Assembly (NCBI GenBank): GCA_045650745.1
Contig: JAZRRN010000049.1
Span: 128,138 to 192,137, forward strand
Direction: 5' to 3'
DNA from: Candidatus Caccovivens sp.
GTDB taxonomy: Bacteria > Bacillota > Clostridia > Christensenellales > UBA1242
DNA: 64,000 nt
Part shown: one piece after another, positions 52,479 to 64,000 of the stretch
How the letters are laid out: every line of letters begins with the position of its first letter
Position numbering within the stretch: position 1 is the first letter of the stretch
Made by a program: the position numbers and the translations under genes
The notes under the pieces: model-generated
Told to the model about the DNA's origin: nothing
Databases searched by the model: none
What the model saw: only the letters and a program-made list of their open reading frames with translations

Positions 52479-52631
52479 AAAGGAGACAGAAATAAAAAAC
52501 ACTCTTTAAAAATGTTGTTGAAAAACATTAGTTTGCTTGATTTTGAGTTTTTTTGATATTTCTTTACTTTTGATGCCAGTTTGATATATTATGTTTATAT
52601 AAATAAACTTCACTATATAAGAGGAAAGCAA

Positions 52632-55600
52632 ATGAGAAAAAAGCATTTTATTTTTGTTTTGTGTTGCATGATGTTCTGTTGGGCAGTGACAGCCTTTTTG
52701 TCAATGCCTACACAAATGACTCTTGCTCAAGAAAATGTTCATAGTCAAGAGGTTTCTGACTTTTTGAGATTTGAACAGGCGATCATCGACTTAAACAATT
52801 CGAAAGATCAACAAGTGATTTCTCAACAGGTTGCTTTGGCAGAAGTAGAGATTGAAGAAGATATTGTTTGTGAAGATGTCCAAAGTGTCGATTTTTCGTT
52901 GAAGAGGTTGATTGTTCAAGGAAATGTGACAAACACTTATGGGGCGACTGATAAATTGTCGTTTAGCAACCTGAATGTTTTGTGTTACAAGACCGAAAAA
53001 GAAACAAAAGATGCGTTTGAAAAACTTGCGCAAAATTCAAACCTTGATGTTGTTGTTGACAAAATTGAAAAAGTTGATGGATATGCTCAACAAGATTATA
53101 CTTACACCAACAAAAACTGGGGCGCAGAGGCTATTGATGTTGGGGGTTACAAGCAATTTCTTGTTGACAGCGATGTGCAAGATGAAGTTGTGGTTGTTGT
53201 TATGGACACAGGCATCAATACATCTCATTCAATGTTTGCAAACAGATTGCTTAAAGACAGAGTAGGAAAAATAAGAGGCTTTTCTTATTATGATTCAAAA
53301 TACAAATACAGCTATCGAAATTTAGGTTTTGATGTTGATGATTTGACAACACAAGACATTGATGAAAGTGATTTAAACAAATATAGTTTTGAAGATGATC
53401 ATGGACACGGCACACATGTTGCAGGCATCGTTTGTGATCTTACACCAAAAAATGTAAAGATTTTGCCAATCAAAGTTGGAAATGATGAGGGGTTTTCTTC
53501 AACATCAATTTTTTTGGCAGCTTATTTGAGAGTGATCAACATTTATTCAAAACAATATAAAATTGCTTGCACAAACTTGAGTTTTTCCGGAGCTGGAAAA
53601 TCAAGCGAGGCTGACAAAAATCAATTTAACGAACAATGCTATCAACCAATGAAAGAACTTGGAATCTTGGCAATCACAGCAGCAGGAAATGAAAGCGAAG
53701 AGATCAATATTGAAGGGTTGGAAGCGATTGTTGTTTCTGCTTTGAAACAATCAGAAGGCGAATATAAATTTGAAAATGAATATTCAAACTATGGAAAAAT
53801 GATTGACATTTCTGCACCAGGAACAGATATTGAATCTGCTTGGATTGCAGGAAACGCAGCAAACTCGACATACGAGACCCATTCAGGGACTTCAATGGCA
53901 TCACCACAAGTTGCTGGGGTTGTTGCATTGTTGGCTCTTCACCCAGATTATCAAGGTTTTACAGCAGAAGAAATGGAGCAAAAGTTGTATGATCTTGCTG
54001 TTGATTTGGGCGATTGGGGAAGAGATGATTATTATGGCTACGGCATGGCAAACATCAAATATTTTGAGGCTGAGGAGTTTGATGAAACTTTGTCTTTTTA
54101 TCGTGACAATGTTTTGATTGAAGTGCACCCAAATTGGGAAAACTTTGAAACAGACTTTACTCTTAAAATAGAATGTTCAGATGCAAGTTATCAAATCATT
54201 TACACAACAAATCAAGCACTTCCAACACTGACAAATGCGACTGTTTATTCAAATCCAATGACAGTCAGCGACACAATTTATTTGAATGTTATGGGGGTGA
54301 AAATTGACAACGGAATAGTTGTTGCAAAGACAGATGTTTACAATGTGGCATTTTTCGATTCTCGCAATCCATTGGAACAATATTTTGAAATTTCAAACGG
54401 CACATTGAGAAAGTATACTGGACACTTTGACAATTTGGTTATCCCAACTGTTATGAAGGGACAAACAGTCAAAACTGTTGGCAATAGCTTGTTTTTGTGG
54501 AACAATCTTCAGTCAATCACTTTGCCAGAAACCGTAACAAGCATTTCAGGATATGCATTTCAAAACTGCAAAGACCTTGTTTATGTTGATGCTCCAAGTG
54601 TTGCAGAAATTTATCTTGCAGGATTTAGTGGTTGCGATTCTTTGACAATGATCTGCGACAGAAATCCAGTGCAAGGAGAAACAGAAGGTGTTTTCTTGCC
54701 AAATCTTACAACTACAAAAGGGTTTGTGTTTAATATTTGCAAAAATCTTCAATCTGTAAATTTGTCAAAATTGACCACTGCCGGAGAATATGATTTTCAA
54801 GCATGCTATCAATTGACATCTGTATATTTGCCAGCAGTAAAAGTGTTTGAAGAAGGCATGTTTGCTTTTTGTGAAAACCTTACTGGAACATTTTTCTTTG
54901 GCAAAGATGTTGAAACAATTGAAACACGAGCTTTTTCACACACAAAGATAAAAAGATTTGAGATTGCAAAAGGAAACACAAACATTTACACTGATGGGCT
55001 TGGCGTTTACACAAAAGACACACTTGTTTGTTTTGCTGCAGGAAACACAAACATCAATTATGAAATTTTGGGCAGTGTTTCAATTGGAGGAGAAATCTGC
55101 ACAATCACAAAACTCGGAGAAGTTGCTTTGGGGTTGGTGGAACTCAACAAATTGACAATCCCTGAAACGATTAACATTATTGGTGCGTGGGTGGGCTCAG
55201 AATCTAAAATCCACCACTTGTATTTTGATGCTAAAAACTGTTCGGAAGATGGATATTATAAGACAATAAGTGGCGTTACAGGCAGATGCCCACCTTGGGA
55301 CACTTTTTCTATCATAGAAATCGGCCCAAATGCAACAAGGGTGCCATTGAGAATTTTTCAAGATGTTTATTTTGATGAGTTGATTATCAATTCTCGAGCA
55401 ACATATTTTGAAACTGCAAGTTTGTATAGATTTAGAGATCAAGGAGTTTTAAACAAACTCGTGTTCAATTTTGCTGACAAGATTGATTCAAGTTATTTGA
55501 ATATGGTTGTTGGGACATCAGCACTTTGCACTTACAATGACATCAATTATATTTATTCAAAAGCAGAAGTGCCAGTCAGTTCTTCATCATATTTATCAAG

Positions 55601-58046
55601 TTTGAGATATTCAACATACGACGGAGAGTATTATATTTACAGCAAATCTCCAATTGTGACTGAAGAAAAATTTGTCATCAGTGCCACCTCAAACACTTAT
55701 GGAAAGATTTCACCTTCGGGAGACAATTATTTCACAAAAAACAGTTCGGCAACATTTATGTTTGAAGCAAATACAGGTTGTTATGTTGCAAGCATAAAGG
55801 TTGATGGTGTGGCATTGTCTGTTGAAGAAGTTGAAATAGCAAGCACAAATGGTTACACATTTGAAAATATTGAAAGTGACCACACAATTGAAGTTGTGTT
55901 TGCGAGAAGAATTTACAGAATTTCAGTCGTTCAGTCGCCAAACGGACTTATAAGTGGTGCGGCAGATGGATATTATTATGGCGAAGTAGCAACCTTTACG
56001 ATCACGCCAAGTGTAGGCTATTATGTCGAATGTTTGATTGTAGATGGCGAAGAAGTTTATGAGCATCCAACCTGGCACAAATTTTTGTATATCACAGAAA
56101 ACCATACAATAAGTGCAAAGTTTTCTCCAAAACCAAACACTGGATACACTGCCAAACATTGGGTTGAAAGTTTGACCGAAGAAGGGGCAACTCGTTTTGG
56201 TCAAAAGTATTACAACTTGATCACAACAGATTCGTCATACGCCGGCACGACTGCAGAAATGACAGCTGTTGTGGCAGGAAGTTATGAAGGTTTCACTGTT
56301 CAACAATTTGAGCAAAAAGTTATTTTGGGAGATGGAAGCACGGTTGTTGATGTGCTTTACAACAGAAATGCATATACTGTAAACCTTGCAAAAGGCGAAG
56401 GCGTGACAGCTGTTTCTGGAGATGGAACTTATTTGTTTGGACAAACAGTGACACTGACTGCAATTCTTGCAGAAGGATATGATTTTTCAGTTTGGACAAG
56501 TTCAAACCATTCGGTTGTTGCAAACGGAAATGTTGCACAATATTCGTTTGCAATGCCTGCAAGTTCGGTTGGATTTACTGCAAATGCGGCAATAAGACAG
56601 CTTGCTGTGTCAATAAGCGCAACAACAAATGGCAGCATTAGTCCTGCAACAACTCAAACTGTGAGTTACGGTGATGATTTGTTGCTGACTGTTGAGGCAG
56701 ATTATGGTTACGAATTGAAAGAACTTTTAGTTAATGGGGTTGATGTTTCGAATTTGGTTGAAGATGGAAAATATACCATTGAAAATATCAAACAAACCTA
56801 TATTGTTGTGGCAAACTTTGGTTTGGTAAAACACACAATCACAGCAACTTCAAACTTTGGTGGAGAAGTTGGTCCAGAAGGGACAATATTTGTGATTCAT
56901 GGAGAAATGCAAAACTATACCTTCTCGCCAAGCGAAGGTTACAGGGTTAAAGATGTCAAGGTTAACGGAGTGTCTGTTGGCAGTGTTGAAAATTATTTGT
57001 TTGAAAGAGTGTTGACAGATCAAACTGTTGAAGTCGAATTTGAAAAACTTGTTTTCACAATCGAAGTTGTTTGTGGTGACAACGGAAGTGTGGGACCAAA
57101 CGGTCTTGTAAGTGTTGAATATGGAAACAGCAAAACTTTTGCGATCACACCAGATGAAGGTTATGGAATTTTGACAGTTGAGTTGAATGGTGAAAGTTTG
57201 GCTATTACAACACAAATCATTGTAGAAAATGTTACAGAAAACAAAACTTTGAGAGTTGTGTTTGCTCAAATGTTTTTGCTTTCTGCCGAAAGTGATGAAA
57301 ACGGATCGATCACACCATCTGAAATTGTTATTTGGGGTGGACAAAAGAGATTTGATTTTCAACCAAACAAGGGATATCAAGTCAAAGATGTCAAAGTTGA
57401 TGGCGTAAGCATCGGGGCAGTTGATTTTTACACATTTGTCAATGTTGATAGAACGCACAGAATTTCAGTAGAATACGAAATCAAAAAACTCAACATTGTT
57501 TTGTATGTTGACGGATGCGGCATTGTTGAATGCGAAAACTTGTTGGAAGATGTGCTTTACGGAGATTCGAGATCTTTTGCTGTCACAGCTGACAAAGGTT
57601 GGAAACTGAGAAGCGTTTTTGTCAACGGAGAAACATTTGAAGTTTTAAATGGAAACCTAGAAATAGACCATGTGACAGAAAATTTGACAATCCAAGTGAT
57701 TTTTGAAAAGAGTTACACAAAAACTGCAGTGTTGATTGTAGTGATTGTTGGATCTGTTATGGTTTTAGGTCTTGTGGCATTTGTGACAATCAATGTCAAC
57801 AAGAGATTAAAGAAAAAGAAAATGGACAGCATGCTAAACGACTCAATGGGTCAAGGTGGTGTTCAACAAGCGCAAGCGACTGCATATATGACGCCACACC
57901 CAATGGTTAATCATGCATTGAATTTGGCTTCACAAAATCAACAAGACTTTGTTAAGTATTGTGAAGCAAACAAACTTGACCACAAGCAAAACTATGTCAA
58001 TGCGGCATTGAGTTATTATCAATCTCGCATAAAAACTAAAAAATAA
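52632..58046 (+). CDS. Secreted, TM-anchored multidomain surface protein: subtilisin-like S8 protease + BspA-type leucine-rich repeats + MucBP-like/Ig-like modules
   Basis: The start is set at MRKKHF behind AGAGGAAAG. Signal peptide ...AFLSMPTQMTLA|QE. S8 triad motifs are VVMDTGIN, HGHGTHVAG and HSGTSMASPQVAG. The LRR run is of the type ...VKTVGNSLFLWNNLQSITLPETVTSISGYAFQNCKDLVYV.... Repeated ~85-aa Ig-like units are of the type GS[IV][GS]P.G...V..G....F.F.P..GY.V.DV.V[ND]G. The TM helix is TAVLIVVIVGSVMVLGLVAFVTINV, followed by an ~85-aa tail. Confidence 0.88.
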   Translation: MRKKHFIFVLCCMMFCWAVTAFLSMPTQMTLAQENVHSQEVSDFLRFEQAIIDLNNSKDQQVISQQVALAEVEIEEDIVCEDVQSVDFSLKRLIVQGNVTNTYGATDKLSFSNLNVLCYKTEKETKDAFEKLAQNSNLDVVVDKIEKVDGYAQQDYTYTNKNWGAEAIDVGGYKQFLVDSDVQDEVVVVVMDTGINTSHSMFANRLLKDRVGKIRGFSYYDSKYKYSYRNLGFDVDDLTTQDIDESDLNKYSFEDDHGHGTHVAGIVCDLTPKNVKILPIKVGNDEGFSSTSIFLAAYLRVINIYSKQYKIACTNLSFSGAGKSSEADKNQFNEQCYQPMKELGILAITAAGNESEEINIEGLEAIVVSALKQSEGEYKFENEYSNYGKMIDISAPGTDIESAWIAGNAANSTYETHSGTSMASPQVAGVVALLALHPDYQGFTAEEMEQKLYDLAVDLGDWGRDDYYGYGMANIKYFEAEEFDETLSFYRDNVLIEVHPNWENFETDFTLKIECSDASYQIIYTTNQALPTLTNATVYSNPMTVSDTIYLNVMGVKIDNGIVVAKTDVYNVAFFDSRNPLEQYFEISNGTLRKYTGHFDNLVIPTVMKGQTVKTVGNSLFLWNNLQSITLPETVTSISGYAFQNCKDLVYVDAPSVAEIYLAGFSGCDSLTMICDRNPVQGETEGVFLPNLTTTKGFVFNICKNLQSVNLSKLTTAGEYDFQACYQLTSVYLPAVKVFEEGMFAFCENLTGTFFFGKDVETIETRAFSHTKIKRFEIAKGNTNIYTDGLGVYTKDTLVCFAAGNTNINYEILGSVSIGGEICTITKLGEVALGLVELNKLTIPETINIIGAWVGSESKIHHLYFDAKNCSEDGYYKTISGVTGRCPPWDTFSIIEIGPNATRVPLRIFQDVYFDELIINSRATYFETASLYRFRDQGVLNKLVFNFADKIDSSYLNMVVGTSALCTYNDINYIYSKAEVPVSSSSYLSSLRYSTYDGEYYIYSKSPIVTEEKFVISATSNTYGKISPSGDNYFTKNSSATFMFEANTGCYVASIKVDGVALSVEEVEIASTNGYTFENIESDHTIEVVFARRIYRISVVQSPNGLISGAADGYYYGEVATFTITPSVGYYVECLIVDGEEVYEHPTWHKFLYITENHTISAKFSPKPNTGYTAKHWVESLTEEGATRFGQKYYNLITTDSSYAGTTAEMTAVVAGSYEGFTVQQFEQKVILGDGSTVVDVLYNRNAYTVNLAKGEGVTAVSGDGTYLFGQTVTLTAILAEGYDFSVWTSSNHSVVANGNVAQYSFAMPASSVGFTANAAIRQLAVSISATTNGSISPATTQTVSYGDDLLLTVEADYGYELKELLVNGVDVSNLVEDGKYTIENIKQTYIVVANFGLVKHTITATSNFGGEVGPEGTIFVIHGEMQNYTFSPSEGYRVKDVKVNGVSVGSVENYLFERVLTDQTVEVEFEKLVFTIEVVCGDNGSVGPNGLVSVEYGNSKTFAITPDEGYGILTVELNGESLAITTQIIVENVTENKTLRVVFAQMFLLSAESDENGSITPSEIVIWGGQKRFDFQPNKGYQVKDVKVDGVSIGAVDFYTFVNVDRTHRISVEYEIKKLNIVLYVDGCGIVECENLLEDVLYGDSRSFAVTADKGWKLRSVFVNGETFEVLNGNLEIDHVTENLTIQVIFEKSYTKTAVLIVVIVGSVMVLGLVAFVTINVNKRLKKKKMDSMLNDSMGQGGVQQAQATAYMTPHPMVNHALNLASQNQQDFVKYCEANKLDHKQNYVNAALSYYQSRIKTKK

Positions 58047-58083: not shown

Positions 58084-58527
58084 TTAAATTGTTTCGATGT
58101 CAAAGTTTAAGGCTTGTGCTCTTTTTACAAACTTGACAATGTTGAAGATGCCCCATTGTGTGCAAACCACAACCTTTTGATTTTGCAAGGTCAAAACATC
58201 TTCGTCTTTCATAAAATATCTTTTTGGTCCATCGCTGATTTTGCTGGCATTGTCGAAAAGCTCCACCACGCCCAATGATCCTTGCAACGACTTGTCAAAA
58301 ACTTTGCACAACTCTTCATAAGTTGGGTTGTTTTGTGCGACATATTTTTTGATTATCGCCAAAACAAGACGGTTTTTAGGAAAAACCTTTCCTTCAAACA
58401 TATATTTCGTTTTGTCTCTGTTGACAGATTCTTGTTTTGCGACAAAATCTTCTTGCTTTTGGAAAACAATGCGTTCCAACTCTTCAATTCTTTTCTTTAA
58501 ATTTGCTATTTCCAATTCGTAATTCAT
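58084..58527 (-). CDS. Hypothetical protein (N-terminal coiled coil; conserved-looking C-terminal domain)
   Basis: The start is set at MNYELEIANLKKRIEELE (58527). There is no SD, and a -10 box sits 6 nt upstream. I recognise no family. Confidence 0.55.
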   Translation of the reverse strand: MNYELEIANLKKRIEELERIVFQKQEDFVAKQESVNRDKTKYMFEGKVFPKNRLVLAIIKKYVAQNNPTYEELCKVFDKSLQGSLGVVELFDNASKISDGPKRYFMKDEDVLTLQNQKVVVCTQWGIFNIVKFVKRAQALNFDIETI

Positions 58528-58533
58528 ACCAAT

Positions 58534-58562
58534 ATTATAGCAAATGTGGCGCAAAAAGTAAA
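58534..58562 (-). promoter_or_regulatory. Promoter TTTACT-17-(TGc)TATAAT, 6 nt from the ATG at 58527 (apparent leaderless mRNA)
   Basis: -35 at 58562-58557 and -10 at 58539-58534. Confidence 0.45.
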
Positions 58563-58570
58563 TAAAAACC

Positions 58571-58620
58571 ACAAAAAACTAAAAATATTTTAGAAAAACT
58601 AGAAAAAACTAGAAAAAACT
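58571..58620. repeat. Helically phased A-tracts / 10-nt tandem repeat (agaaaaaact)
   Basis: The sequence reads acaaaaaact aaaaatattt tagaaaaact agaaaaaact agaaaaaact. A5-6 tracts recur every ~10 nt and end immediately upstream of the -35 of the 58683 gene. Confidence 0.8.
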
Positions 58621-58682: not shown

Positions 58683-59087
58683 ATGAAACAAATCAAAACA
58701 GTTGCTGGAGTTATCAAAAACGAAAAAGGGGAAATCTTGTGCACATTGAGAGATCAAGGAAAATACGAATATGTTTCTTTCAAATGGGAGTTTCCGGGTG
58801 GAAAGATTGAAGAAGGCGAAACAAACCAACAAACACTTGCAAGAGAATTGAGAGAAGAGTTGGAAATTGAAGTTGAAATCGGAGATTTCTTCTATCAAGT
58901 CGAACATGACTATCCAGATTTTCACTTGTCTATGGCCGTTTACGAATGCGAATTGATTTCAAAAGAAATGAAGATGAATGTTCACAAAGGTCTCAAATGG
59001 CTTGCACCAAAAGACATTATGTCTTTGGAATGGGCAGCAGCAGATATCCCTGTTGCAGAATTGATCTACAAAAACCACCAAAACTAA
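58683..59087 (+). CDS. mutT: NUDIX hydrolase, MutT-like (8-oxo-dGTP/(d)NTP pyrophosphohydrolase)
   Basis: Nudix box GGKIEEGETNQQTLARELREELEIEV preceded by WEFPGG; 134 aa; SD AAGGAG. Confidence 0.85.
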   Translation: MKQIKTVAGVIKNEKGEILCTLRDQGKYEYVSFKWEFPGGKIEEGETNQQTLARELREELEIEVEIGDFFYQVEHDYPDFHLSMAVYECELISKEMKMNVHKGLKWLAPKDIMSLEWAAADIPVAELIYKNHQN

Positions 59088-59093
59088 CAAAAA

Positions 59094-59127
59094 AGAGAGG
59101 CACCTTACCCACCTCTCTTTTTCTTTC
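59094..59127 (+). terminator. Rho-independent terminator
   Basis: AGAGAGG (59094-59100) pairs with CCTCTCT (59112-59118), followed by a T-rich run. Confidence 0.7.
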
Positions 59128-59249
59128 ATCATGCACCAATCCTCTCGCCGGAGCGAACAAATTTCAGGTTGAACTAAAAGTTGACAACAACAAAATTATA
59201 GTAAACATACTCCAAATGAGAAAAAATCTCACAAAAGTGTCATAAAGTA

Positions 59250-59277
59250 TTGATTTTTTACAAATTTATGGTATACT
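59250..59277 (+). promoter_or_regulatory. Promoter TTGATT-16-(TGg)TATACT for the AAA-ATPase/RloB pair
   Basis: -35 at 59250-55 and -10 at 59272-77. Confidence 0.5.
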
Positions 59278-59317
59278 AAGTGTGAGAACTTATCATAATA
59301 TATAAAGGAGGTGTACT

Positions 59318-60565
59318 ATGATAATACAATTTAACTTCAAAAATTTTAGATCTTTTAAGGATAAAAATACAATAGATATGCGAGCTACAAAAATTACAGA
59401 ATATAAAGACCAGATTGTAGAGGTTAATGATTTAAAGTTATTGCCAATTGCTACATTTTATGGTGCAAATGCTAGTGGTAAATCAAATGTTTATTATGCT
59501 CTTGAATTTATGAGGACGATGGTATTGAGGTCTTTTTCTTTTGGGGGTACTTCTAAAGAAACAAGTGAAATTTTTTATGATTTTAACAATAATGTGCAAT
59601 TTGCTTTTGATGACGAAGCAAATAAGGCAGATACTGAATTTGAAATTATTTTTACAACTAAGTATAACGAAAAGAGTTATGTCTTTGATTATGGTTTTTC
59701 TCTCAATCCAGATAACATAATAAAAAGTGAATGGTTGAAAACGAAAGCACCATCATCAAAATCATTTAAAGATATATTTGCTAGAAATGAACAAGAAATA
59801 AATTTATGTGGGCTGACAAAAGAATATGCCAACATGATTAGATTAACATTAGAGAAAGAAGTTTTAATATTATCATTAGGTTCAAAACTTAAAATCGAGA
59901 TTTGCAAAATTGTTAGAGAGTGGTTTGAAAAAATAGAATGTTTGAATTTTTCAGGCGGTTTAAATGCTTTATTTGCTAGTGAAAGGTCTCCTAAGCAGTT
60001 TGAAAAAGAAGAAATTCAAAAAAATATTTTAGATTTTATTTCTAGTTTTGATGATTCAATCAAAGGTTTTAGAAAAATTGATGACGAAAAGAAAAAGTTT
60101 TCTAATTATCCTGTTAATGCACTGCATGATACGATTGATAATTCAGGGCAAAAAGAGTTGTCATTAGATAATGAATCTGCAGGAACTAGAAAGATGATTA
60201 GTTTATATTCGCCAATTAAAGACGTTTTGGGCAATGGCGGAGTGTTGCTTGTTGATGAATTAAATGCAAGATTGCACCCACTTTTAGTTCGAAATATTAT
60301 AAGAGAATTTGCAAATAAAGGAACAAACCCACTTGGTGCACAATTACTATTTACAACACATGATACATTTCATTTAGGAGATAATTTATTAAGAAGAGAT
60401 GAAATATGGTTTGTAGAAAAAAATAAAGGAATTTCTAATCTTTATTCTCTTGCTGATTTTGAATATAACGGGACAAAGATAAGAAAAGATGCTGATTTAG
60501 AAAAAAATTATTTGCTAGGAAAATATGGTGCGATTCCTGACTTGAAGCCATTTAATTTGAAATAG
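59318..60565 (+). CDS. AAA_21/AAA_15-type (ABC/SMC-like) ATPase, AbiLi-like
   Basis: The N-terminus MIIQFNFKNFRSFKD is typical. Walker A is GANASGKSN and Walker B is LLVDELNARLHP. A late H-loop-like THD is present. SD AAGGAGG. Confidence 0.8.
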   Translation: MIIQFNFKNFRSFKDKNTIDMRATKITEYKDQIVEVNDLKLLPIATFYGANASGKSNVYYALEFMRTMVLRSFSFGGTSKETSEIFYDFNNNVQFAFDDEANKADTEFEIIFTTKYNEKSYVFDYGFSLNPDNIIKSEWLKTKAPSSKSFKDIFARNEQEINLCGLTKEYANMIRLTLEKEVLILSLGSKLKIEICKIVREWFEKIECLNFSGGLNALFASERSPKQFEKEEIQKNILDFISSFDDSIKGFRKIDDEKKKFSNYPVNALHDTIDNSGQKELSLDNESAGTRKMISLYSPIKDVLGNGGVLLVDELNARLHPLLVRNIIREFANKGTNPLGAQLLFTTHDTFHLGDNLLRRDEIWFVEKNKGISNLYSLADFEYNGTKIRKDADLEKNYLLGKYGAIPDLKPFNLK

Positions 60566-60576
60566 TGAGGTAAAAA

Positions 60577-61215
60577 ATGGCAAACAAAAGAGAAATCTTA
60601 GCACCTAGAAGGTCCGGATTCAAGAGTCAAAATTTACCCAGATACTTAATTGTCGTTGATACAGAGCAAACGGAATTTAATTACTTAAACGGATTAAAAA
60701 ACACAATCCCACGACATCTTGTTGATAGAGTTGATATCCAAATAAAAAATACTAGTACTGATAATTTAGTGGACTATTGCTTAAATATGTGTAGAAAAAA
60801 TCCGAATTATGTAACTCCTTGGATTGTTTTCGATAGAGATAGAGTGGTAAATTTTGATGAAATAATCCGTGATGCATATAGTCATAAAATTAATGTTGCA
60901 TGGTCTAATCCTTGTATTGAAACTTGGTTTTTTAGTTATTATGATAAACCACAAAATATTTCTGAGTCTACTATTTGTGTGTCAAAGTTTAAAGAAAAAT
61001 TTAAACAGGAGACCGGACAAGAATATAAAAAGAATGACAAAAACATATATAGAAAGTTAAATCGAACAGGGTCTCAAGATAAGGCAATAAAATATCATGA
61101 TGTTAAATTTAGAAATTATAGACAAGATGCGACTCCTCCATCGGAGATGTTTTCTTGTTCCACAATGTATATGTTAATTTCTGAACTACTTGAAATTATT
61201 AGTAAATTGAAATAA
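60577..61215 (+). CDS. RloB-family (Toprim-like) protein, AbiLii-like
   Basis: The N-terminus ...PRYLIVVDTEQTEFNYLNGL resembles the RloB signature (ilIvcEGekTEpnYf). It is 212 aa and lies 11 nt after the ATPase gene. Confidence 0.6.
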   Translation: MANKREILAPRRSGFKSQNLPRYLIVVDTEQTEFNYLNGLKNTIPRHLVDRVDIQIKNTSTDNLVDYCLNMCRKNPNYVTPWIVFDRDRVVNFDEIIRDAYSHKINVAWSNPCIETWFFSYYDKPQNISESTICVSKFKEKFKQETGQEYKKNDKNIYRKLNRTGSQDKAIKYHDVKFRNYRQDATPPSEMFSCSTMYMLISELLEIISKLK

Positions 61216-61395
61216 ATACATGGCAATACTTACCATTTTACAGATGGCAATTCGCATTAAAAAGTTAACTGATTTAATTCAAAATATTTTTCTTCTAATT
61301 AAAAAGGAGGTAACTATTATGGCTTATGAAGTTAATAAACTTCTTGTTGTTTGCGTGTGAATTGGGTATTGCCGGACGCGAGTCACAAGAAGTTT

Positions 61396-61423
61396 ACCAG
61401 AGTTTTTCTCTGGTTTTTATTTT
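61396..61423 (+). terminator. Rho-independent terminator downstream of the ATPase/RloB pair and the micro-ORF
   Basis: ACCAGAG (61396-61402) pairs with CTCTGGT (61408-61414), followed by TTTTATTTT. Confidence 0.7.
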
Positions 61424-61624
61424 GAAAAATTTCTAAAAACAAATAAATTTAATTTTGTTTGTTTTTTATTTTGAAAATTCAATACTTGATTAATATGTCG
61501 TGTAAAAAAATATTTTTCATAGTTTCAAAAAATCTAGTAAAATATAAAAAATTTATAAAAAACAAAACAAATATAAAAAATATGTGTTATAATATATCTT
61601 ATATTGGAGAATTAAAGGAATTTT

Positions 61625-62827
61625 ATGAAAAAGACGATTTGTGAATTATTCGCTGGTGTTGGCGGGTTTAGATTAGGATTTGAAAGACAATCACAAGATT
61701 GGGAAACTGTTTGGTTTTCTCAATGGGAACCAGGTGCTAAAAATCAATGGGCTCATCAATGTTATGTAAGTCATTGGGGCGATATTGATAATAACACAGG
61801 CATTGATATAGCAGAAGTAAATAAAAGCGAAATACCAAACCATAACTTATTGGTTGGTGGTTTTCCATGCCAAGATTATTCTGTTGCTCATAGTTTAAGT
61901 AGTAGTCATGGTATTGAAGGAAAGAAAGGTGTTTTATGGTGGCAAATAAGGGATATTTTAGAAGAGAAACAACCACCTTTTGTTTTGCTTGAAAATGTAG
62001 ATAGATTATTGAAATCTCCAGCAAAACAAAGAGGTAGAGATTTTGGTATTATTTTATCTTGTTTTGCTCAACTAAATTATTCTGTAGAATGGAGAGTTGT
62101 TAATGCTGCAGAATTTGGTGCTGCGCAAAGAAGACGAAGAATTTTCATTTTTGCTTACAAGAATACTACAAATTGGGCTAATAATAAAACAAATGAAACT
62201 TATAAAGATATTATTCTAAATACAGGACTTTTTGCAAGAGCATTTCCTATTGCAGAAAATGGTGCTATTAAAAATGAAGAGTTTAGATTTGATGACTTGT
62301 TGAAAGTATCAAACGAATTCAAATATGATTTTAAAAATGCTGGAGTTATGTCAAATGGAAATATTTATTCTTGTGATGTTAAAGCTCAAACAGAAGAAAG
62401 CACCCCATTAATTAATATTATAGAGCATAATGTTGATGAAGAATTTTATATAACCAATAATCTTGAGAAGTGGCAATATTTAAAAGGATCCAAAAAAATA
62501 AATAGAACCAGCAAAGATGGACATTCTTATGTGTTTAGCGAAGGATCTATCGCTTTCCCTGATTCATTGGATATGCCAGCTAGAACAATGCTAACATCAG
62601 AGTCTACACTAAATCGTAGCACTCATGTTATTAGAGATGTTGAGACAAATAATTTGAGACTAATTACACCTGTTGAAGCTGAAAGAATACAGGGATTTGA
62701 TGATAACTGGACAAATACAGGCATGCCAAAGAAAATGAGATATTTTTGCATGGGAAATGCCTTGGTTGTTCCAATGATAACAAGAATGGCAAATATACTT
62801 GAAGATATTTTTAATGAGGAGGATTAA
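61625..62827 (+). CDS. DNA (cytosine-5)-methyltransferase, M.Sau3AI-like
   Basis: Motif I ELFAGVGGFRLGFE, IV GGFPCQDYS, VI ENVDRLL, VIII QRRRRIFIF, IX TPVEAERIQGF, X GNALVVP. The QWEP...GKKGVLWWQI...SPAKQRGRDF runs match my recollection of M.Sau3AI. Confidence 0.9.
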   Translation: MKKTICELFAGVGGFRLGFERQSQDWETVWFSQWEPGAKNQWAHQCYVSHWGDIDNNTGIDIAEVNKSEIPNHNLLVGGFPCQDYSVAHSLSSSHGIEGKKGVLWWQIRDILEEKQPPFVLLENVDRLLKSPAKQRGRDFGIILSCFAQLNYSVEWRVVNAAEFGAAQRRRRIFIFAYKNTTNWANNKTNETYKDIILNTGLFARAFPIAENGAIKNEEFRFDDLLKVSNEFKYDFKNAGVMSNGNIYSCDVKAQTEESTPLINIIEHNVDEEFYITNNLEKWQYLKGSKKINRTSKDGHSYVFSEGSIAFPDSLDMPARTMLTSESTLNRSTHVIRDVETNNLRLITPVEAERIQGFDDNWTNTGMPKKMRYFCMGNALVVPMITRMANILEDIFNEED

Positions 62828-62828
62828 A

Positions 62829-64000
62829 ATGCAACAATACTCCACAAAAAGAGAAATATTAGAAAGAGCTCAACAATTAATAGGGATTCAATTTAAAGAC
62901 ATAGATACAAAAGGTATTTTATCTTCTGGCAAAGGTGCAATTGGAAATTTAATTCAAGAATGCTGGTTTAATATTCCTGTCAATAGCGACCCACGACCGG
63001 ATTTTATTGATGCAGGTATTGAGTTAAAAGCACACCCTTTTCGTTACAATAAAAAGGGAGAGGTTGTCGCAAAAGAAAGACTTGTCTGTGATATTATAAA
63101 TTACATGGAAGAATATAATAAAACATTTGAAACAAGTGCATTTTACTTGAAATGTCATGATATGTTATTACTTCCATATGAAGACAAAATTAATATAAGT
63201 AAAGAATATTTTTCAGTCGCAAAAGCTGTATTATTTTCTTTTCCTGAAGAAGATTTAAAAATAATAAGAGATGACTGGGCAAAAATTATATCTAAAATCA
63301 AGGCAGGAATTGCTGAACAAATATCTGAAGGTGATACTTTATATTTAGGAGCTTGCACAAAAGGTGCAAACGCAAATAGTTTAAGAAAACAACCTTTTTC
63401 TTCCGTTTTAGCAAAACAAAGAGCATATTGTTTAAAAACATCTTATATGACTTATGTTTTGCAAAACTACATCTTTGGAAATATTCAAAACGAAAGAATT
63501 ATTTCAGATGTTTCGCTATTACAAGATAAAACATTTGAACAATATGTCGTCGAACAAATAGATAAATATAAAAACTATTCAGTTGATGAACTATGTGAGT
63601 GTTTTGATATTGATAAAAGAAAACCTATAAAAAATAAAGAATCTATCTTGGCATTTAATATTCTCGGAGTAAAAAGCAATAAAGCTGAAGAATTCATAAA
63701 GGCAGGAATTAATGTAAAAACTATTCGATTAAACTATAACAATATGATTACTGAAAGTATGTCTTTTAGAACATTTAAGTTCAAAGAAATAGTTGACCAA
63801 AAATGGGAAGATTCAGATTTGCAAAATTATTTTTCTGAAACTAGGTTTTTATTTGTTATTTATAAGCAAGATGAGAAAGGTGTTTTAAGATTAAAAGGTT
63901 GCCAATTTTGGAATATGCCATATGATGATTTAGAGATTGAAATGAAACAAGTATGGGAGAAAACTAAACAAGTTATTTCTGATGGTTCGAGTTTTAGAAA
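62829..64000 (+). CDS. Type II restriction endonuclease, Sau3AI/MutH family (3'-partial, runs off window)
   Basis: This ORF is not in the ORF track because no stop lies in the window. The ATG at 62829 lies behind GAGGAGGA. My translation is MQQYSTKREILERAQQLIG...GKGAIGNLIQE...PDFIDAGIELKAHP...KERLVCDIINY...LSEGDTLYLGACTKGANANSLRKQPFS..AKQRAYCLKTSYM...ESMSFRTFKFKEIVDQKWEDS...ETRFLFVIYKQDEKG. These runs are collinear with Sau3AI as I remember it. Confidence 0.85.
   Translation, partial: MQQYSTKREILERAQQLIGIQFKDIDTKGILSSGKGAIGNLIQECWFNIPVNSDPRPDFIDAGIELKAHPFRYNKKGEVVAKERLVCDIINYMEEYNKTFETSAFYLKCHDMLLLPYEDKINISKEYFSVAKAVLFSFPEEDLKIIRDDWAKIISKIKAGIAEQISEGDTLYLGACTKGANANSLRKQPFSSVLAKQRAYCLKTSYMTYVLQNYIFGNIQNERIISDVSLLQDKTFEQYVVEQIDKYKNYSVDELCECFDIDKRKPIKNKESILAFNILGVKSNKAEEFIKAGINVKTIRLNYNNMITESMSFRTFKFKEIVDQKWEDSDLQNYFSETRFLFVIYKQDEKGVLRLKGCQFWNMPYDDLEIEMKQVWEKTKQVISDGSSFR

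Follow-up and report, generated by a model that had tools for sequence, protein, structure and literature searches.

The window, i.e. the whole 64,000-nucleotide stretch of DNA analysed here, carries a two-gene module on the + strand in which ORF A (59318-60565) encodes 415 aa and ORF B (60577-61215) encodes 212 aa, with an 11-nt spacer between them. The module forms a discrete ~2.3-kb cassette (about 59140-61449) that contains a putative promoter of its own, the two genes, a structured 3' tail and a terminator. The features of the cassette and of the restriction-modification (R-M) genes next to it are as follows:

59137..59317, + strand: left end of the cassette and 5' leader; homology to six other loci (L001-L004, L094 and L095) begins at 59137-59156.
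59217-59231: inverted repeat TGAGA-N5-TCTCA, from reading of the sequence only.
59250-59277: putative sigma-70-like promoter TTGATT-16-TGnTATACT, from a consensus scan only.
59305-59311: putative ribosome-binding site (RBS) AAGGAGG, taken directly from the letters alone.
59318..60565, + strand: abiLi-like gene (ORF A) for a predicted 415-aa Rad50/SMC-type ABC ATPase of the AAA_21/AAA_15 kind (Pfam, PADLOC, alignment and AF2 model).
60566..60576, + strand: intergenic spacer of 11 nt with the RBS GAGG at 60567-60570 (sequence and terminator scan).
60577..61215, + strand: abiLii-like gene (ORF B) for a 212-aa RloB-family protein, a putative Toprim-type metal-dependent nuclease effector.
61216..61425, + strand: conserved structured 3' tail of the operon, ~210 nt, present in 7/7 cassette copies.
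61625..62827, + strand: type II C5 cytosine DNA methyltransferase, a neighbour outside the module (PF00145, 6e-67; TIGR00675, 8e-73; PADLOC MTase_II, 3e-170).
62829..64000, + strand, cut by the window end: Sau3AI/MutH-like type II restriction endonuclease, a neighbour outside the module (PF02976 MutH, 9e-36, in two stretches).

The original prediction had placed the module at 59318-61215 with an 11-nt gap and a 212-aa second ORF, and these values as well as the motifs that it quoted were exact to the base. A terminator scan of 60566..60576 detected no terminator between ORF A and ORF B; thus, the abiLi-like and abiLii-like genes form one operon. In comparisons with homologous copies, dN/dS was 0.03-0.06 for ORF A and 0.07-0.10 for ORF B at dS values of up to 0.7-1.0, demonstrating that both are under strong purifying selection. 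Because homologues of the module proteins moreover number hundreds to thousands, we conclude that ORFs A and B are real genes and not chance ORFs.

ORF A starts with MIIQFNFKNFRSF and contains a Walker A motif (G49ANASGKS56), a signature-like motif (E286-S-A-G-T290), a Walker B/D-loop region (LLVDELNARLHP; residues 310-321, Walker B D313-E314) and an H-loop (T346-T-H-D349), all of which are invariant across a 31-sequence alignment. The C-terminal tail, which ends in YGAIP, is also strongly conserved; the last 60 residues are invariant and are modelled with low confidence. ORF A matched PF13304 (AAA_21) at 3.6e-24 and 86.8 bits (gathering score 27), and its top PADLOC match was AbiLi (PDLC02335; 8.6e-86, 285.9 bits), followed by AriA at 3e-26; matches to PtuA and NsnB were weak, with NCBIfam PtuA scoring 19.4 bits where the cut-off is 500. 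In Foldseek searches, the AF2 model of ORF A (pLDDT 70.6) matched Rad50 (3QKT; 8e-8), an SMC head (4I99; 6e-7), GajA (3e-6) and the AriA structures 8V46 and 8UX9 (E about 3e-4). A long coiled coil is absent. The four motifs together with the modelled Rad50/SMC head fold identify ORF A as a predicted ABC/Rad50-SMC-like ATPase of the AAA_21/AAA_15 kind, as had been proposed from the sequence.

ORF B matched PF13707 (RloB) at 4.8e-30 and 105.6 bits (gathering score 31.5), with residues 23-204 covering positions 1-195 of the 195 positions of the profile, and PF13707 is present in 306/306 ORF B homologues. The sole PADLOC match of ORF B was AbiLii (PDLC02337; 2.3e-18). Candidate catalytic residues are E33, which lies in the segment RYLIVVDTEQTEFNYLNGL (residues 22-40), D86-x-D88 (D86-R-D88) and E115 (in WSNPCIE, past strand 4); all are invariant among 40 ORF B homologues, and their equivalents are retained in lactococcal and Klebsiella AbiLii-like proteins.

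Toprim domains are recognized by a conserved Glu in the turn between strand 1 and helix 1, a DxD motif after strand 3 and an alpha/beta core with the strand order b2-b1-b3-b4. In the AF2 model of ORF B (pLDDT 89.6), the core elements are ordered b-a-b-a-b-a-b, E33 is located just past strand 1 (22-27) and D86-R-D88 at the end of strand 3 (80-86). Thus, as modelled, ORF B has the element order and the placement of the Glu and DxD of a Toprim domain, and RloB has been described as a Toprim member with a Glu after strand 1 and a DxD after strand 3 (PMC12065111). Fold and profile searches gave a different picture from the acidic residues: Foldseek of the ORF B model against the PDB placed its best match (E 0.037) among flavodoxin-like folds, which are unrelated; searches of PDB sequences with the ORF B sequence and profile gave no match; the Toprim Pfam families were not matched at E≤10 by the 40 RloB homologues; and hhalign comparisons of RloB with the C-terminal regions of P2 Old and 23 class-1 OLD proteins gave probabilities of 0.1-0.4. 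Of the proposed assignment of ORF B to an RloB/Toprim-like family, the RloB part was therefore upheld; for the Toprim part, the acidic residues were found in the model while the fold searches lacked a significant match. In total, we regard ORF B as a putative Toprim-type nuclease effector.

The association of the two proteins extends far beyond this locus. Among 82 RloB matches (81 loci and the window), an ATPase gene lies directly upstream in 79, and the three exceptions comprise two start-calling artefacts, in which the ATPase is still adjacent, and one contig end. The gap between the two genes is mostly -11 to +11 nt. The pairing of ATPase and RloB and their order are, therefore, near-universal. 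The module also conforms to the PADLOC definition of AbiL, i.e. adjacent AbiLi and AbiLii matches on the same strand with the ATPase first, and PADLOC or DefenseFinder would label it AbiL; it sits in a small defence island. These were the best PADLOC matches of both proteins, bearing out the AbiLi/AbiLii architecture originally suggested. We conclude that the module very probably belongs to the AbiL family (AbiL/RloA-RloB).

The cassette is present at 77-97% nucleotide identity in the six other loci. The left flanks of the seven copies are all unrelated to one another, and the right flanks are of four kinds; between the window and L002-L004, similarity is confined to the cassette, plus the R-M genes in L004. 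The GC content of the window falls to 0.28-0.30 from 59300 onward, and relatives of the module were found on 191 plasmids, in 10 phage or prophage records and in 6 IMG/VR contigs. Integron attC-like or tRNA-like cassette ends were rejected, as convincing core sites were lacking and the junctions contained no tRNA. The cassette has travelled from one defence island to another among gut anaerobes, and the locus shows directly that cassettes of this sort are exchanged as whole units among islands with type II R-M, type I R-M, HNH or Fic neighbours. One carrier MAG is labelled as belonging to another phylum, which, provided that the MAG was binned correctly, would imply transfer across phyla. The locus gives a cleanly delimited and self-contained ~2.3-kb cassette with precise ends.

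This patchy and variable context, in which unrelated flanks surround copies of 77-97% identity, bears on whether the pair could be a housekeeping system for DNA repair or chromosome maintenance, with an SbcC/RecF/Rad50-like ATPase and a nuclease. The top structural matches of the ATPase are the heads of Rad50 and SMC, and some homologues adjoin mutS2/RNase H or sit between hrcA-dnaK-dnaJ and lepA. In fact, most of the distant homologues are solitary inserts amid housekeeping genes and not in obvious islands; however, they are variable two-gene inserts and not conserved housekeeping operons. The anomalously low GC content, the lack of a long coiled coil in the ATPase, the AbiL models as best PADLOC matches and the decayed copies found elsewhere (184-aa ATPase fragments in L085-L087) also argue against a housekeeping role, which we consider very improbable. 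The absence of AAA_21 and RloB matches, or homologues consistently in housekeeping contexts, had been named beforehand as observations that would count against a defence module; both HMMs match, and the distant copies are the variable inserts described above.

Because decayed copies occur, we also considered that the module might be a relic that has lost its activity and travels with the R-M system. However, neither ORF is truncated, the catalytic motifs are all intact, dN/dS is 0.03-0.10, and the putative promoter, both RBSs and the terminator are conserved among the cassette copies. A relic is hence extremely unlikely, and the module, as far as its sequence indicates, appears intact and has the look of an expressed operon.

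As originally noted, the module lies directly beside an R-M system, with the C5 methyltransferase and the MutH/Sau3AI-like endonuclease following it; the full-length orthologue of the endonuclease in L004 has 452 aa (PADLOC REase_II, 2.7e-110). Just upstream of the cassette are the PADLOC candidates PDC-S07 and PDC-S57. The neighbours of the cassette, here and in the other loci described below, are defence-like. The arrangement raises the possibility that the module is an accessory of the Sau3AI-type R-M system, a second line fired by a phage anti-restriction protein, which would be a special case of the defence reading. The first description of RloAB placed these genes within type I R-M loci of Campylobacter (PMC13064643, PMC10440598), what PARIS senses is an anti-restriction protein, Ocr (PMC11464382), and in L001 a type I R-M system lies about 5 kb downstream of the cassette, together with an HTH-Fic and an RnlA-like protein as neighbours. 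However, the cassette moves independently: the Sau3AI-type pair is joined to it only in the window and in L004 and is missing in L001, L002, L003, L094 and L095, among which L002, L003 and L095 have HNH neighbours. In the wider clade, an R-M marker was detected within 8 kb in at least 6 of 80 loci, a lower bound because the marker set was limited; this count does not support R-M adjacency as a general rule of the wider family. Moreover, we know of no anti-restriction trigger for any AbiL system. Overall, an R-M-linked accessory function is unlikely.

The 3' tail (61216..61425) is an additional feature of the cassette. Its minimum free energy is -54.2 kcal/mol (z = -4.95), 97.3% of cells in the consensus structure are paired, and six pairs have changed on both sides compared with 2.3±1.1 in shuffles. 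The folded structure includes an 11-bp stem (61337-61347 with 61385-61395) and pairing of a Shine-Dalgarno sequence (SD) GGAGG (61306-61310) with UCUUC (61291-61295), and an intrinsic terminator (61396-61414) followed by a U-run closes the tail. The tail diverges about half as much as the third codon positions of the adjacent genes. No Rfam family matches it, neither tblastn nor a covariance model detected it in the 80+ loci of the ~45% clade, and a 31-nt degenerate pattern did not find it in IMG/VR; by these searches, the tail appears specific to this cassette clade.

A 46-codon ORF (61220..61360) runs through the tail and ends in frame as a 13-codon mini-ORF (61319..61360; MAYEVNKLLVVCV). 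Its frame is open in 7/7 copies; a normal protein gene was nevertheless rejected, as dN/dS is 0.8-1.8 and the start is lost in L003 and is GTG in L094. Similarly, the variable columns in this region fall 14:12:15 on the three codon positions, i.e. there is no coding pattern in the tail. The 13-codon mini-ORF with its invariant SD is a possible coding unit. A functional role of the tail as a third component of the module, either as a translation-sensing RNA switch for phage-induced host shut-off or through control of the RloB level by a cis-regulator or an RNA antitoxin, is a speculative suggestion that we hold to be doubtful. If true, the module would be a protein-protein-RNA variant of an ATPase-plus-Toprim system, and the tail would offer a handle on the control of nuclease expression or activation; no description of such an RNA component was found in the literature examined on AbiL, PARIS or OLD systems.

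Known since 1999, AbiL is common on plasmids, in prophages and on chromosomes. In Lactococcus, it acts by abortive infection (Deng 1999, as related in PMC13064643). The selected function of the module is probably defence against phages or mobile elements, and we favour with good confidence the reading that it is a functional AbiL-family defence module. A mechanism can be proposed by analogy with PARIS (AriA/AriB), in which AriA sequesters AriB and tRNA is cleaved (PMC11464382), and with the NetFlax RloB-like:AAA toxin-antitoxin pair. The Rad50/SMC-like ATPase would oligomerise and keep the RloB nuclease inactive; on sensing a phage product or a phage-induced change, it would release or activate the nuclease through ATP binding or hydrolysis; the RloB nuclease may then cut nucleic acid of the host, the phage or both, RNA (tRNA or another kind) being a somewhat likelier target than DNA; and translation and growth would stop, so that the infection aborts. 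That sequestration and release of this PARIS-like kind take place has a chance that we put at slightly below even. PARIS may be a weak guide, because the predicted structures of AbiLii and AriB superimpose poorly (FEMS 2026 review, PMC13064643).

The same analogy opens the alternative that the pair is a toxin-antitoxin addiction system, with RloB as toxin and the ATPase as antitoxin, which stabilises the cassette or the island and for which defence is incidental or absent. In E. coli, the NetFlax RloB-like:AAA pair was validated as a toxin with its antitoxin, and anti-phage activity could not be demonstrated for the AAA-neutralised NetFlax pairs in this host (PMC10440598); the cassette, moreover, is small and mobile, and many copies are on small plasmids. 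By contrast, lactococcal AbiL confers phage resistance (Deng 1999, as cited in PMC13064643), and PARIS, Gabija and Septu, which are related systems of an ATPase and a nuclease, all serve in defence. The two roles do not preclude each other; addiction as the function for which the module was selected is quite unlikely, and a defence module of the AbiL family remains our preferred interpretation.

Compared with known systems, the module is of an already known kind, ordinary, and adds little to the concept. Its ATPase is related to those of Septu, retron Ec78 PtuAB and Menshen NsnB/NsnC. Septu (PtuA/PtuB) membership was rejected, as the partner of the ATPase is an RloB protein without an HNH domain whereas in Septu an HNH nuclease takes this place. 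In Menshen, an RloB domain serves as effector in some of the NsnC proteins (PMC12065111); however, Menshen has three genes and the module two, and it was not assigned to Menshen. Similarly, OLD and GajA have fused ATPase and Toprim domains, and Gabija adds the GajB helicase, whereas the module consists of two separate proteins without an adjoining UvrD-like helicase; thus, neither Gabija nor class 1-2 OLD membership was accepted.

PARIS is likewise a split system pairing an ABC ATPase with a Toprim-type nuclease, with ATPases of the AAA_15/21 group, and is the best available mechanistic model; AbiL is in the same ATPase tree as PARIS (Burman et al. 2024). The module is not PARIS itself, as its effector is RloB (PF13707) and not DUF4435 (PF14491), the latter being unmatched in 40 RloB homologues at E≤10. 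Also, ORF A, with about 415 aa, lacks clear equivalents of the AriA insertions. In the NetFlax pair TOPRIM_OLD(D44, RloB-like):AAA(D29) from Clostridium algidicarnis, which shares both its two-domain architecture and its bacterial class with the module, the RloB-like protein is toxic in E. coli, and the AAA partner neutralises this toxicity (PMC10440598); for that pair, toxin-antitoxin behaviour has been shown and phage defence has not been demonstrated.

RloA/RloB of Campylobacter jejuni, named as 'restriction-linked ORFs' (Miller et al. 2005), has in common with the module a PF13707 protein, an AAA ATPase partner and an R-M neighbour. However, the C. jejuni genes are inside type I hsd loci, whereas the module adjoins a type II Sau3AI-like R-M system, a linkage that is missing in 5/6 related loci.

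Finally, AbiL (AbiLi/AbiLii) of the Lactococcus lactis plasmid pND861 (Deng, Liu & Dunn 1999) has the same operon order, i.e. an AAA_15/21 ABC ATPase followed by an RloB-type protein. In the identity comparison, the pair of the lactococcal prophage proPhi7, annotated as 'abortive phage resistance protein', served as a stand-in for the pND861 proteins. This pair scored 4.4e-76 for PADLOC AbiLi and, for ORF56, 4.7e-18 for AbiLii, and a Klebsiella plasmid AbiLii-like protein scored 1.5e-21 against AbiLii; hence, the AbiL scores of the module are at least as good as those of the proPhi7 pair, with AbiLii scores being comparable. ORF A is 26% identical to the proPhi7 ATPase over its full length (E 2e-25) and ORF B 22% identical to the proPhi7 RloB over 109 aa (E 0.006); a tblastn search with the ORF B protein matched no Lactococcus plasmid. 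The acidic motifs are common to the lactococcal AbiL-like pair and ORF B although the sequences are very distant. The module differs from lactococcal AbiL in its gut-anaerobe host, its chromosomal location beside a type II R-M system and its 3' tail, a feature that its more distant relatives lack.

The original prediction described an AAA-ATPase gene and an RloB-like gene, 11 nt apart and beside a restriction-modification (R-M) system, as an AbiL-type module. Both ORFs were found at exactly the coordinates claimed, the 11-nt spacer carries a GAGG ribosome-binding site, all the peptide motifs quoted are present in the sequence, and the R-M genes lie downstream. In the list below, the cassette is the ~2.3-kb block comprising a 5' leader, both genes, a 3' tail and a terminator.

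58084-58572, minus strand: 161-aa ORF; matches the C-terminal part of PADLOC PDC-S57 (1.4e-12), no Pfam match
58683-59087, plus strand: NUDIX protein immediately upstream of the cassette; full-length match to PADLOC PDC-S07 (4.7e-46)
59318..60565, plus strand: ORF A, abiLi-like ATPase gene, 415 aa
60577..61215, plus strand: ORF B, abiLii-like RloB gene, 212 aa
61216-61425, plus strand: structured 3' tail from the abiLii stop to the terminator, ~210 nt, kept in seven of seven cassette copies
61625..62827: C5 DNA methyltransferase, downstream of the module
62829 to beyond the window end: MutH/Sau3AI-like restriction endonuclease, next after the methyltransferase

The ORF A protein contains a Walker A motif (G49-ANASGKS-56) and a Walker B/D-loop (LLVDELNARLHP, residues 310-321), while residues 22-40 of the ORF B protein (RYLIVVDTEQTEFNYLNGL) form the RloB N terminus. 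The proposed AAA_21 and RloB assignments were borne out by Pfam, with ORF A matching AAA_21 (3.6e-24, 86.8 bits, cut-off 27) and ORF B matching RloB along the entire length of the profile (4.8e-30, 105.6 bits, cut-off 31.5). Similarly, the AbiL-type pairing is reflected in PADLOC, in which AbiLi is the top match of ORF A (8.6e-86; second, AriA, 3e-26) and AbiLii the sole match of ORF B (2.3e-18); an NCBIfam search of the pair returned no specific model. The same AbiLi/AbiLii models matched ORF55/56 of the lactococcal prophage proPhi7, annotated 'abortive phage resistance protein', at 4.4e-76 and 4.7e-18, and a Klebsiella plasmid pair annotated abiLI at 1.3e-82 and 1.5e-21. Because these scores are comparable, the window pair is as good a member of the model families as the named examples, although its identity to the proPhi7 pair is low (26% for the ATPase and 22% for RloB). 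We conclude that the pair is very probably an AbiL-family module.

In an alignment of 31 homologues, Walker A, an ESAGT signature-like motif, Walker B (D313-E314), the H-loop (TTHD) and a long C-terminal tail ending in YGAIP are invariant in the ATPase. All 40 RloB homologues aligned share E33, D86, D88 and the WSNPCxE115 motif, and equivalents of the acidic residues are retained in the far more distant lactococcal and Klebsiella proteins. Moreover, dN/dS against the six other cassette copies is 0.03-0.06 for ORF A and 0.07-0.10 for ORF B, with dS up to 0.7-1.0. Finally, the ATPase gene lies directly upstream on the same strand in 79 of the 82 RloB matches (81 loci and the window); in two of the exceptions it is still adjacent, an over-extended RloB start call causing a large apparent overlap, and the third is at a contig end. 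Judged by motif invariance, dN/dS and pairing, both genes appear to be functional. ATPase residues 356-415 (RRDEIWF...LYSLADF...NYLLGKYGAIP) are among the most invariant of the family and yet have a pLDDT of only 30-46; these C-terminal ~60 residues may fold only upon oligomerisation or partner binding.

The AF2 model of RloB (pLDDT 89.6, pTM 0.84) has an N-terminal half with the order b-a-b-a-b-a-b, in which E33 directly follows strand 1 and D86xD88 ends strand 3. This predicted placement corresponds to the Toprim signature that the Menshen study (PMC12065111) reported for RloB domains. A Foldseek search of the model against the PDB gave only insignificant, flavodoxin-like matches, profile searches with RloB of PDB sequences and Pfam returned no Toprim relative, and hhalign of RloB against P2 Old, an OLD-family nuclease, and 23 class-1 OLD C-terminal regions did not reach significance.

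The block at ~59140-61449 is also present in six other loci with 77-97% nucleotide identity, i.e. two ENA gut metagenomes (L001, L095), Clostridia metagenome-assembled genomes (MAGs) from sheep and roe deer (L002, L003), a MAG labelled Candidatus Gastranaerophilales (L004) and a Logan contig (L094). The seven left flanks are unrelated to one another; on the right, four types of flank occur: a Sau3AI-type R-M system (window, L004); a small ORF with an HNH protein (L002, 9085-10375; L003; L095); HTH-Fic, then an RnlA-like/RNase HII protein and a type I R-M system (L001); and a tRNA-like sequence (L094). The block has its own signals, namely a promoter-like TTGATT-16-TGnTATACT (59250-59277), a strong ribosome-binding site and a terminator. 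Thus, it is a discrete, mobile cassette, and its precise delimitation is one useful extra of this locus.

At the left end (window 59089-59160 and the junctions in L001-L004 and L095), the sequence TTGGCGG(A/G)GCG|AACAAAG is conserved. L001, L002, L004 and L095 each have a hairpin, unrelated in sequence, no more than a few nt upstream of this end; the closest hairpin in the window lies ~30 nt upstream, and that of L003 is weak. The gene next to the L004 hairpin is divergently oriented, so that this hairpin cannot be its terminator. The hairpins might reflect an insertion-site preference. Two loci, L002 (10483-10570) and L095 (6138-6225), have a tRNA-Ser(tga) gene 1.6-2.3 kb beyond the 3' side of the cassette, and in L094 a tRNA-like 3' fragment, truncated by the contig end, lies ~190 nt downstream. 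An inverted repeat, TGAGA-N5-TCTCA (59217-59231), just upstream of the abiL promoter -35, is retained as TGAGAAA-N-TTTCTCA in L094, the most divergent copy, and may be an autoregulation operator. Defence-like neighbours of cassette copies include a 602-aa RnlA-toxin-like/RNase HII fusion (L001, 5751-7559) and a KAP NTPase (L094, 501-1841). The 12.7-kb L004 / L082 contig (GCA_045606885.1, JAZUSV010000211.1) carries the cassette and the same R-M system (96% identity), and its ATPase protein does not differ from that of the window. Clostridia MAGs contain the other close copies, and the L004 copy reflects transfer between phyla or else erroneous binning.

The 3' tail has diverged about half as much as third codon positions in the adjacent genes (0.11-0.12 versus 0.27 in L001 and L095; 0.22 versus 0.42-0.46 in L094) and, in the farthest comparison, has changed less than the 5' leader has (0.22 versus 0.37). 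A 46-codon ORF in the tail (61220..61360) is open in all copies; it was rejected as an ordinary protein gene, with a dN/dS of 0.8-1.8 and variable sites of 14:12:15 by codon position, and its start codon is lost or altered in two copies. The tail folds at -54.2 kcal/mol compared to -37.0±3.5 in shuffled controls (z = -4.95). The consensus structure has 97.3% of cells paired. Within it, an invariant GGAGG (61306-61310) and UCUUC (61291-61295) form a Shine-Dalgarno-sequestering helix; a 13-codon mini-ORF (61319..61360) follows GGAGG, and its 3' half forms with 61385-61395 an 11-bp stem directly adjoining the terminator hairpin (61396-61414). Pair changes on both sides number six, compared to 2.3±1.1 after shuffling (1 of 500) and 0-1 for slid controls, in statistics based on seven related sequences from which the structure was itself derived. 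Rfam gave no match to the tail, and a covariance-model search found only the seven cassette loci, more distant relatives being without the tail. We interpret the tail as an operon cis-element specific to this lineage, possibly a regulatory switch; this clade-specific conserved RNA is the other useful extra of the locus.

The endonuclease is complete in L004 (452 aa; PADLOC REase_II, 2.7e-110). Because both genes upstream of the cassette match PADLOC candidate-defence models beside AbiL and R-M, the 3' end of the window resembles a small defence island, which would comprise four modules (PDC-S07, PDC-S57, AbiL and R-M) if the PDC candidates are real. GC content is 0.28-0.30 from 59300 onward versus 0.36-0.47 further upstream. 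Elsewhere in the window, a 9307-aa ORF (123-28046, plus strand) with at least 13 Listeria-Bacteroides repeat (Flg_new) domains in its first 4500 aa (2e-196) encodes a giant surface-type protein; an 1821-aa protein (52581-58046, plus strand) has a subtilase (Peptidase_S8) domain, BspA-type LRR_5 repeats, Flg_new_2 repeats and a C-terminal membrane anchor-like segment.

Across the wider clade (~45% identity; for the most part Lachnospiraceae and other Clostridia), most pairs stand alone as inserts amid housekeeping genes, with one copy adjoining a Cas12a locus, one near HipA, and some decayed; an R-M marker from a limited set lies within 8 kb in at least 6 of 80 loci. Relatives occur in 191 plasmid records, 10 phage or prophage records and 6 IMG/VR contigs. 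In L090 (6727-14193), a distant AbiL-like pair lies between an upstream Y1 transposase gene and, directly downstream, Cas12a-Cas4-Cas1-Cas2. In three metagenome contigs (L085-L087, 7444-8660), the RloB gene accompanies merely a 184-aa ATPase fragment, between hrcA-grpE-dnaK-dnaJ and hemN/lepA; this is apparently a decayed copy in which a putative toxin gene has outlived its partner.

In total, the original prediction was correct in observation and interpretation, and modules of the AbiL kind are already known. Given the architecture, motifs, purifying selection, mobility and defence-type neighbourhood established here, we consider it likely that the module serves defence. In Lactococcus, AbiL brings about abortive infection (Deng 1999, as described in PMC13064643), and in E. 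coli the toxicity of an RloB-like protein from Clostridium algidicarnis is neutralised by the AAA protein paired with it (PMC10440598). The Toprim nuclease of PARIS, AriB, stays sequestered by AriA until AriA senses a phage protein, and AriB, once freed, cleaves tRNA; AbiL was placed within the same ATPase tree (PMC11464382). By analogy, the window ATPase would hold RloB inactive and, on sensing infection, release it to cut RNA or DNA, leading to cell arrest. Poor superposition of the AbiLii and AriB models is stressed in a 2026 review (PMC13064643), and we only tentatively extend the PARIS-like scheme to the window pair.
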